Shown here: piece by piece, positions 9,001 through 12,000 of the stretch
How positions within the stretch are numbered: the first letter of the stretch is position 1
Layout: each line of letters opens with the position of its first letter
Assembly: GCA_045159875.1 (NCBI GenBank)
Contig: CP067995.1
Location: 1,152,001-1,216,000 of the forward strand
Direction: 5' to 3'
From: a cyanobacterium endosymbiont of Rhopalodia gibba
GTDB lineage: Bacteria; Cyanobacteriota; Cyanobacteriia; Cyanobacteriales; Microcystaceae
Length of the DNA: 64,000 bases
Program-made: the position numbers

Positions 9001-12000
9001 TTTAGAAAACGTAGCTCTATGGCATGAAAGGGATATTTCCCACAGTTCGGTGGAACGGGTCATGTTACCAGATGTCTGCATCTTAACCCATTTTATGTTG
9101 TTTGAAATCACTAATTTGGTGAAGAACTTATTAATTTATCCCGAAAATATGAAGCGTAATATGAATATTTATGGCGGAGTTATTTTTAGTCAACGGGTGT
9201 TATTAACCTTGGTAGAAAAAGGTATGAGTCGGGAAAATGCTTACAAAACTGTTCAAAGATGTGCTCATCAAGCTTGGAATAAAATTGATGGCGACTTTTA
9301 TGGATTGATTAAGCAAGATGTCCAAGTGACTCAATGTTTATCTACTGAAGAAATTGATAGTTGCTTTGATCCTCAATATCATTTACAGAATTTAGATCTA
9401 ATCTATCAACGACTAGGAATTTAGGAATTGTCTTTCCAGACTCAGAACTTGTACCTTAATCAATATAAATCTTCAGAACATTCTTGATATTGCTGTAATA
9501 AACTTTCTAAGTTTACTCATTATTGAGACATGAGTTCGACGATATTTTAAGATACTATTGTTGTTCTCAAGATCTAAATTAGAAATACAAAAAAGCTGAC
9601 GATTATCTAAAATAGTAACCGTCAATGATTGATACTCCTGTTTCTTAAAAATAACAGGAGATGAAGAAAACTTACTTTCTGTCTTTAGATTGAGAAAAGG
9701 ATTTTCGAATAAGTAAGTATAAGTGACTAGTCCAGTAAAACGGTTAACAAAACAGTTCCGAATACTTCTCCTTTGATTTCTAAAATGTTCAATACAAAAG
9801 ATATTTTTCATTTTGTCGTCAACTGTTTCAGTCAAAAGATACTTACAAAATAAAATTGTATCAATTAGATTAATTAACTTTTACTTAATCTGATGGCGAG
9901 GAATTAATTAAATTCCTTGCCATCAGAGCTTTCTAATTGGTTCCTGAACACTTAATAGACTTCCATCGAAATAAGATACATCAACCTAATTTCTGCAATT
10001 TTTGCTTTGGAAGTCTGCAAAAACACAGTATAGTAACATTGTTGCTCAGAGCATAAACTCTACAAAATGATTGTAGCTGACTTTCTTAGAAAATACAGTT
10101 TTACTAAACCTGTCATGTAAAAATTAAAAGTATAAAGACAGAGTTTGTTTATTAAAAATAGAATTATAAAAAAACACTGTTATTATCAGAGTTACTATAT
10201 AGATGGTATTGTAGTAAATTTTATGTTTAAATTAAATTGTGTTAGGCTCGATATTTTCACTTAGTTTATACCTATGGCGTCAAATGCTCAACTTAGTTTA
10301 ATGAATGAGATTCTACATTTAGAAGGACTCAGCATTACCCATTATCAGATTTTAAATGAGATAGGAATAGTTTTATTTATTGAAAAAATAGACCCCACAG
10401 CAACTTGTATTTATTGTGGTTCAACCACTAAGAAACTTCATCAAAATAATGAATTAACTATTAGAGATTTGCCTTGGGCAGAGAAAGCCGTCTATCTCAA
10501 GATTAATCGTCGTCAAATGAGATGTAACCAGTGTGGAAATAAATTTACAGAAGAGTTAAGCTATGTTAGGAAGAAAAGAACATATACTGAAAGATTTAAG
10601 ATAAAAATTATTGAAGAGGTCTTAAATAGTAACATGAAGAATGTCGCTAAAAGGAATGGAGTGAGTGAACAAGAAATAGAAACAATGCTCAAAGACTTAG
10701 GTCAATAATTACAGATGGGAAAATCTCGGACATTTAAACAGTTAACAATTTTTGACTAAGATTGAAGCTGAAGTAACAGTACATAGATTTCATATGATAA
10801 AACAAGTTAATGCTCAGTTATAGGCATCACTGCATTTAGGATGGTAAAAATCTGCCAAATCTTAATACAGTCTTGTTTGGCAATAATGTTGATAACCAGC
10901 AAACTATTAAAAATTTAAATAATTCCTAAATGAGGCTCTATAAGACATTAATATTGTATGAATTATTATACATAACAAGTTTACTGTAACTGAATTAGAT
11001 CATCAAAACAAACTTTTAAATTAGAAGCTAAAGAGCTAAAAAATTTTAGTAAAAAATAAAAAAATATGTTGATTCTATATAGAGAGTGGATATGTTTTAC
11101 TCGAAAATGAAGAATATTAAAGTAAAGAATAAAAAGCTATGTCAGACTGAGTATATAATAACGTCATTAGTGCTTTAGAAAATACACCAGTTAAAAAAGA
11201 AATATAGAAAATTCTTAACGATAATTGAGACCGTATATTAGGACTATTAAAATGATTGTCCGGGTAAAAAAAAACCATTTGTTTAGAAGAAAAAACTGTG
11301 AGATAATTACATATTAGATTGAAGAAACTACTGTCTATTTAGATAAATAAAAATTTGATAAACGTTCTTAAAATATTAAAAATTAATTGGAATTAATTAA
11401 AAGAAAAAATTATGAATTTAGAGTTGTTATAAATTTTTAGCTCCTAAGTCTCTTGACTTGATATTTCATTAGTTAATCCTATAGTATAATCCCGTTATTA
11501 CCATTAAACGTTGAACAAGTAAATTATTTTGTATTTTTATATTTAAGGAAATAGAGTTATATTTATAGGCTTGATAATAATTTTGGAAGTTATTCCTCAC
11601 TAATATACCAGACTTAGTATAGAAGAGCTCATTTATATCACTTGAATTGATATTTAATTAGAGTAACTCCTTTAATTAAGACTTTGTTTAACTGCCTTAG
11701 CTAAATTATATTTATCTTCAAACATTTTTATGGAAATTTTATAAACTTTTATTTTATGCCATCCTCATTCTATTAGATTTAGTTCTGGACTATAAGTTGG
11801 TGTAAAACAGAGATATTTTTTTTCCATTGTTTTAATTTGGTTTTAACTAAACCACTTTTTCGGATCTGCTCTATTTTTTTAGCCTAATCTACCTCTCAAG
11901 CTAAAATTTTTTTATCTTTTTAATTTTTCTTGTTGATGGACGAACTCTCATATTTACTTTCTTCTTTTTTCATTATCAGTCTTTTTTTTAAGAATTTTAC

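Follow-up and report, generated by a model that had tools for sequence, protein, structure and literature searches.

Retention of the DNA-binding N-terminal third of a dead ISL3 transposase as a gene under purifying selection in diatom endosymbionts

Background

CENP-B and FHY3/FAR1 are eukaryotic proteins that arose from transposase DNA-binding domains. CGGBP1, as described in the accessible part of PMC8097297, likewise keeps a DNA-binding part under purifying selection and has lost catalysis. In bacteria, TnpA-REP (PMC8266576) and TldR (PMC10705468) are transposon proteins kept by the host, the latter being nuclease-dead transcription factors according to the accessible parts of these papers; both are HUH- or TnpB-derived. 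The keeping of the DNA-binding front third of a transposase as a gene has rarely been described in bacteria. Non-catalytic N-terminal products are also made by live elements, for instance the programmed InsA of IS1 and OrfA of IS3 (PMC13181058, accessible part), and the ISAon1 N-terminal region protein (NF049916) is the separately encoded N-terminus of an ISL3-related transposase. According to the accessible text of PMC7780238, N-terminal fragments of the IS256, IS911 and IS30 transposases are sufficient for end binding, and the N-terminal end-binding region of the ISCth4 transposase dimerizes and binds a subterminal repeat.

The nitrogen-fixing spheroid bodies of rhopalodiacean diatoms carry many transposase fragments, which the accessible portions of PMC11131595, PMC5638926 and bioRxiv 10.64898/2026.03.19.712447 report only as inactive; the IS fragment table of PMC11131595 has only ISL3 pieces of 26-42 aa. 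A literature search covering titles and abstract openings, and few subscription journals, returned nothing on a domesticated ISL3 N-terminus or on the gene described here. This gene is a variant of transposase domestication: a real gene made from the third of a dead ISL3 transposase that carries its DNA-binding domains.

Results and discussion

The locus and its product

The DNA analyzed (the window) is a stretch of 64,000 nucleotides, C1:1152001-1216000, where C1 is contig CP067995.1 of the 3.06-Mb genome of the cyanobacterial endosymbiont of Rhopalodia gibba (G000). It contains an ISL3 element spanning window positions 10097 to 11502 (Table 1). The names purB, accB, efp and pyrG used for the neighboring genes are presumptive, being assigned from sequence. 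A first-pass annotation had proposed that one dead copy keeps an intact 144-aa ORF made only of the zinc-ribbon and helix-turn-helix (HTH) part of the transposase, and the Pfam matches and the position of the stop codon bear this out. Zn_ribbon_ISL3 scores 54 bits (cut-off 25.5) and HTH_Tnp_ISL3 40.3 bits (cut-off 27.4), so that the 16.7-kDa product has the N-terminal pair of domains of ISL3 transposases (PF14690, PF13542). An annotated alternative is a 135-aa form starting at Met10.

Table 1. Features of the ISL3 element and its surroundings (window coordinates)
Feature	Position	Strand	Remarks
purB	8129..9424	+	Left synteny anchor
IS982-like remnant	9530..10095	-	Adjoins left end of element; G007 counterpart is a DDE_Tnp_1_3 protein
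29-nt block	10011..10039		Invariant in G000, G001 and G006; within IS982-like remnant; weak sigma70-like site toward ORF
Degenerate left terminal repeat	10097..10124	+	5, 7 and 7 mismatches to family motif in G000, G001 and G006
Leader (putative promoter and ribosome-binding region)	10126..10273	+	10-15% pairwise difference; conserved above pseudogene level
Retained ORF	10274..10708	+	144 aa; N-terminal third of ISL3 transposase; TAA is codon 145
Zinc ribbon	10397..10534	+	Residues 42-87; C45, C48, C84, C87
Three-helix HTH	10550..10699	+	Residues 93-142
Codon pieces 146-159, 206-212 and 231-251	10709..10825	+	Codons 160-205 and 213-230 missing
Remnant of another repeated element	10823..10990		Inserted into dead DDE region
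Decayed codons 248-408 and degenerate right terminal repeat (11475-11502)	10992..11502	+
accB	12667..13161	-	Convergent right synteny anchor; followed by efp and pyrG

The protein shares with ISL3 transposases the zinc ribbon and HTH, 76% identity to intact copies and recognizable terminal repeats around its gene. It differs from them in having no DDE domain, in occupying a single fixed, vertically inherited locus and in showing host-gene-like selection. Measured against the model of the active enzyme (NF033550, about 400 aa) it reaches 76.4 bits, the cut-off being 180, and the terminal inverted repeats are no longer intact, the left having 5-7 mismatches and the right being degenerate. Like the ISAon1 protein it is a separately encoded N-terminal region, but the score to NF049916 is 22.8 bits against a cut-off of 55 and no intact DDE ORF follows downstream. 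InsA and OrfA resemble the protein as non-catalytic N-terminal products for which, by analogy, end binding would be expected; they are programmed products of live elements, whereas the 144-aa form goes back to a nonsense change and has outlived its family. Compared with TnpA-REP and TldR it is the bare DNA-binding module of a DDE transposase, and it stands apart from the eukaryotic cases in being bacterial and young, in its patchy retention and in how little it has departed from the element.

Downstream of the stop the element is dead, as the first-pass annotation held: the remnant at 10781-11500 differs by 22-24% between genomes, and 10709-11500 contains 26, 28 and 29 stops per frame. Codons 160-205 and 213-230, which we take to have held the first two catalytic aspartates of the DDE core, are missing, and at these joints G000, G001 and G006 align without gaps. 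The first 72 nt past the stop (10709-10780) differ by 7-14%, about half the pseudogene rate. A consensus fold of the 3' region had two-sided changes in 1 of 38 pairs, so an RNA structure there is unsupported.

The remnant upstream of the element presumably belongs to the IS982 family; an identification as ISAs1 was rejected. The 29-nt block inside it is partly retained in G004, the surrounding remnant otherwise being neutral, and may be a captured promoter or binding site. A promoter scan gave 3 sites where 5.5 were expected, and no terminator. Further AT-rich repeat-element remnants lie at about 11600-12600, part of which matches many places in relatives, and at about 5900-6500.

From an 88-row alignment, which superseded an input of 13 rows (pLDDT 51), AlphaFold2 modeled the 144-aa protein with a pLDDT of 91.5. 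At the N-terminus the predicted fold has a helix and a hairpin; the four cysteines sit on a long beta ribbon, and three helices make up the C-terminal part. Searches with the model gave nothing at E<=0.001 (Foldseek) or at Z>=5 (VIA-align); the sole near whole-length match, to residues 21-152 of the ISCth4 transposase (Z 2.4, rmsd 4.3, 112 aligned), is at noise level, and the remaining ones are weak HTH matches. A PDB sequence search with the protein found chance zinc-finger matches only. As a homodimer it scored 0.25 relative to a mark of 0.42, on a scale for which controls were not folded. From its domains and modeled fold, we infer that the protein binds DNA. Reconstruction suggests that it is nearly the ancestral IS sequence: the clear changes from the inferred ancestor are few (N15D, T20S, I121M and the stop), with none at the four cysteines or in the last HTH helix.

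Orthologs, losses and relatives

Thirty-one genomes were searched, of which 22 had a match. A stop-free copy ending at the same point, with 97-100% identity, is found only in G000, G001 and G006, those in G001 and G006 being 97% identical and lying between purB and accB, in agreement with the first-pass annotation; the gene is therefore an orthologous, fixed locus in several species. The closest named records, at 97% each, come from the Epithemia clementina (L122) and Rhopalodia gibberula (L123) endosymbionts; the second of these proteins bears the NCBI name 'transposase family protein'. We take G001, G003, G004 and G006 to be rhopalodiacean spheroid bodies; their genomes are 2.5-3.1 Mb and syntenic with G000.

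The gene is missing or broken in two of the five complete endosymbiont genomes. The first-pass annotation had not found the locus in G003 or G007 and hence took the gene to be dispensable; in the endosymbionts that lack the gene, however, the locus is still there. In G003 one deletion of about 1.48 kb (window ~9886-11370) has left the right end of the element, and in G004, the most distant endosymbiont (dS about 0.5), a decayed remnant sits at the same place with most of the leader absent. The losses show that the gene is useful but dispensable.

Several further proteins are apparent orthologs, namely P0066 (144 aa, intact), P0002 and P0067 (144-145 aa, 86-88%), P0006 and P0068 (113 aa, most of the HTH absent), P0075, P0063 and P0064. 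They have in common the derived residues D15 and S20, or descendants of these, and some of them may be contig-edge pieces. The last residue of P0075 is 67 and the first of P0063 is 82, both on contigs of up to 6610 bp, and the two appear to be one gene split by a nonsense mutation at codon 68, which would mean at least one further broken lineage. P0064 carries the private changes of P0075 and P0063 with Q at codon 68, possibly that same stop read under another code.

Full-length relatives exist in G007, which has five ISL3 copies 76% identical to the ORF. The intact free-living transposases of the first-pass annotation are thus real, but here they are in G007 rather than G002, although the genome numbering may differ between the two analyses, and they have 408 aa from the ATG, the reported 413 being a stop-to-stop frame. 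Among 89 outside relatives 3 stop at 135-155 aa and 38 exceed 390 aa, and comparison of these sequences suggests that the short form arose by a nonsense change and not as a programmed product. In the Atlas, all clusters retrieved were ISL3 N-termini of 140-147 aa. The zinc-ribbon/HTH module also occurs elsewhere without a DDE domain, fused to an AAA_35 NTPase in P0074 and as tandem repeats in P0121 and P0193.

The family is dead, and died early

With the G007 element as query, G000 has 76 ISL3 remnant loci, and there are 109 local matches to the 5' part; the figure of about 124 dead copies given earlier was not reproduced. No intact or young ISL3 copy was found in G000. The dead copies average 70.5% identity to the 5' part of the focal element, and about half of their ancestral G/C sites are now A/T. 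An nhmmer census showed an excess of 3' over 5' ends among the remnants (38 vs 6), which we discarded as query bias because it shrinks to about 57 vs 44 with the focal query.

Since a decayed remnant occupies the same place even in G004, the insertion predates the split of the five sampled genomes. To place the other copies we took the best 30 of the 59, 52 and 45 ISL3 matches in G001, G006 and G003: in 81 of these 90 control loci both flanks map to one place in G000. The dead copies being orthologous, the selection measured among G000, G001 and G006 postdates the mobility of the family, and, as they predate the split, it is not selection for repression of transposition. This largely refutes the idea that the protein is still an anti-transposition repressor acting on live ISL3 elements. 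Its anatomy is the same as that of the InsA and OrfA inhibitors (PMC13181058, accessible part), but there is no intact or young copy in G000 for it to act on, 81 of the 90 loci from relatives are syntenic with it on both flanks, and the papers on spheroid bodies, in their accessible parts, report no intact transposases. The protein may, as the first-pass annotation suggested, formerly have repressed its own family; that role does not account for current selection, as the dead copies are older than the split.

Selection acts on the protein

The three pairs of orthologs have 4/11, 4/15 and 4/14 nonsynonymous/synonymous changes, giving dN/dS of 0.079, 0.056 and 0.060 at dS 0.15-0.21, which reproduces the range 0.056-0.079 reported before. 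The binomial p values are now 8e-6, 3e-8 and 1e-7, and are not independent because the genomes are related. At about 0.06, dN/dS is below the core-gene median of 0.166 (bioRxiv 10.64898/2026.03.19.712447, accessible part). Six neighboring genes (seven were run) have dS 0.11-0.29 and dN/dS 0.03-0.35 among the same genomes.

For a neutral baseline, 3 of the 90 control loci were set aside as the focal element itself; 62 of the other 87, 2 of them duplicates, passed a filter requiring both flanks (>500 bp) and >80% of the match to be present in G000, and the 25 left out may be deletions in G000. The orthologous dead copies that passed differ from G000 by 0.11-0.27 per copy, and first, second and third codon positions all show 0.19-0.23. 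Neutral evolution at pseudogene rates (substitutions only, no indels) was simulated 20,000 times: the probability of three stop-free copies was 3e-4, and simulated pairs had a mean identity of 60% and a maximum of 75%. In the real genome only 1 of the 76 remnant loci, the focal ORF, has a matching open frame of >61 aa.

Could the frame have survived with no protein function, as a chance survivor, a slowly mutating stretch, or the cover of an RNA or DNA element? Many copies do mean many chances, but the simulation excludes chance. Synonymous sites do change more slowly than pseudogene DNA (in window 9760-12600 those of genes are about 40% slower, with a strong G/C to A/T bias), but the synonymous G/C sites of the ORF change at 0.115, which equals the neighbor genes (0.108; pseudogenes 0.14-0.19). 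The differences are concentrated at third positions (11/15, 15/19 and 14/18), and Rfam gave nothing at gathering score in the window, its two chance matches (E 0.25-1) being outside the ORF. The non-protein reading is refuted as far as these tests go. The proposal of domestication under purifying selection is accordingly backed by the neighbor genes, the orthologous dead copies and the neutral simulation: there is protein-level purifying selection that continued after mobility ended. That selection acts on a protein function is near certain, and the gene almost certainly encodes a functional protein.

Expression

In the accessible part of the E. clementina proteome (PMC12377750, Dataset S4), in which 754 of 1585 endosymbiont proteins were detected, entry WGT67387.1 has one peptide (11.1% coverage, one spectrum, q 0.0045) and intensity 0. 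The row stands between those of purB and accB and its mass, 15.812 kDa, is that of the 135-aa form P0001; the masses of WGT67386, 67388, 67389 and 67390 match the orthologous purB, accB, efp and pyrG products. The row is firmly that of the ortholog. One peptide with zero intensity fits low abundance, and is a weak indication that the protein is made at a low level. Four of 15 listed RNA runs (X1-X4, one sample, in the form of contigs) cover 30 of 30 bins at flat depth, dead DNA included, and therefore say nothing on expression.

A second retained IS N-terminus

Of 2548 G000 ORFs of >=70 aa screened for at least five paralogs with stops, six qualified. Besides the focal gene and a 141-aa HTH ORF, these were three ordinary genes and a 78-aa frame antisense to a dead copy. 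The HTH ORF of 141 aa (G000:C1:2195290-2195712; L270:2291-2716, + strand), outside the window, has Pfam HTH_32 and HTH_23 domains, is presumably of IS630 type, is convergent with a hisC-like gene and has about 28 paralogous matches that contain stops. G001 has it intact (dN/dS 0.216; 15 nonsynonymous and 16 synonymous changes, p 1e-4), G006 has lost most of it by deletion, and neither G003 nor G004 shows a match at the locus; an endosymbiont MAG is also named in its cluster. In G001 the locus matches next to the region corresponding to window ~5900-6500. No mass match to its ortholog was seen in the accessible part of the PMC12377750 proteome table. Supplemental Table 2 of PMC11131595 has a further ORF, of about 300 aa with IS3-like matches, kept in all four spheroid bodies, which could be another domestication or a mis-annotation. 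It is conceivable, if improbable, that early spheroid bodies kept the DNA-binding N-termini of more than one expanding IS family (ISL3, IS630-type) as host-owned trans-repressors, which helped to end the IS burst and stayed on as silencers or regulators.

What the protein may do

If the protein guarded many ends of ISL3 elements, conservation of these ends would be expected. We scored those sites with an ortholog among the fetched loci, drawn from 104 with <=6 mismatches to the terminal-repeat motif (about 49 expected by chance). They differ by 0.158-0.178 between genomes, compared with 0.177-0.202 for the inner flanks, and by 0.171 in G003, where the gene is absent. Divergence is flat along the dead elements, and the gene's own left repeat varies. 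Genomes that carry the gene have 14, 16 and 7 sites with <=3 mismatches, and those that lack it 9 and 0. IS ends as conserved binding sites are thus unsupported, since their conservation does not exceed that of the flanks whether the gene is present or absent; as terminal-repeat sites decay neutrally, the gene's own included, no target was found. A motif-like site at window ~7888-7915 was rejected, since it has 5 mismatches and shuffled patterns give 4.9 matches in that class. Targets may be few, or operators may lie within the conserved leader, below the power of a site-conservation test. The leader has three invariant blocks (10127-10144, 10218-10244 and 10259-10278), but its conservation is modest (Fisher p 0.06 and 0.007), and promoter function accounts for it just as well.

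The reading we prefer, with a probability of about 0.45, is that of a domesticated, dispensable, low-abundance DNA-binding regulator, most likely a repressor at a few IS-derived sites. Early in the spheroid-body radiation, close to its base, dozens of sites were colonized by an ISL3 element, which then died. In one copy codon 145 evidently became a stop and the catalytic core disappeared; what was left is a zinc-ribbon and HTH protein, predicted to fold, with its own leader, and the endosymbiont has evidently retained this fragment under purifying selection since. By analogy with IS1 InsA and IS3 OrfA, the protein may be a non-catalytic repressor that keeps the ancestral end-binding chemistry, acting at one or a few ISL3-derived sites, probably its own leader too, where it would damp IS-derived promoters. 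Taken singly, DNA binding is probably the selected activity, and the odds that the target is IS-derived are a little short of even.

Selection that persisted after transposition ended, while IS ends decayed neutrally, would also fit a host role unrelated to IS: the protein might regulate host genes as a transcription factor via chance site similarity, assist by binding DNA non-specifically, or partner another protein in a zinc-dependent way. The module also occurs without a DDE domain in P0074, P0121 and P0193. We consider this reading somewhat less likely than the preferred one, as the protein is almost unchanged from its IS ancestor and the gene has been lost repeatedly, and its near-absence from the proteome speaks against an abundant nucleoid protein.

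A quite unlikely alternative makes the gene a trap, its sole benefit being to silence the promoter from which it is itself transcribed and which points toward the convergent accB-efp-pyrG genes; mutating the protein would then be harmful, and joint removal of promoter and gene free. The single deletion in G003 did take promoter and ORF together, most of the leader is missing in G004, and the IS630-type parallel was likewise lost by deletion in G006. Yet the leader itself is conserved, though one promoter mutation would free the gene, and the lineage of P0075 and P0063 was apparently broken by a stop.

Conclusion

Because the ORF evolves at a dN/dS below the core-gene median, a shrinking endosymbiont genome has gained a gene from IS debris, apparently twice. 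In a nitrogen-fixing diatom endosymbiont dozens of copies of an element have decayed and the front third of one has been conserved. This is a dated, simple bacterial case of a form of domestication, that of transposase DNA-binding domains, for which most of the documentation comes from eukaryotes. The case is a warning that a short 'transposase family protein' need not be a pseudogene, and its product is small enough to be amenable to in vitro study.
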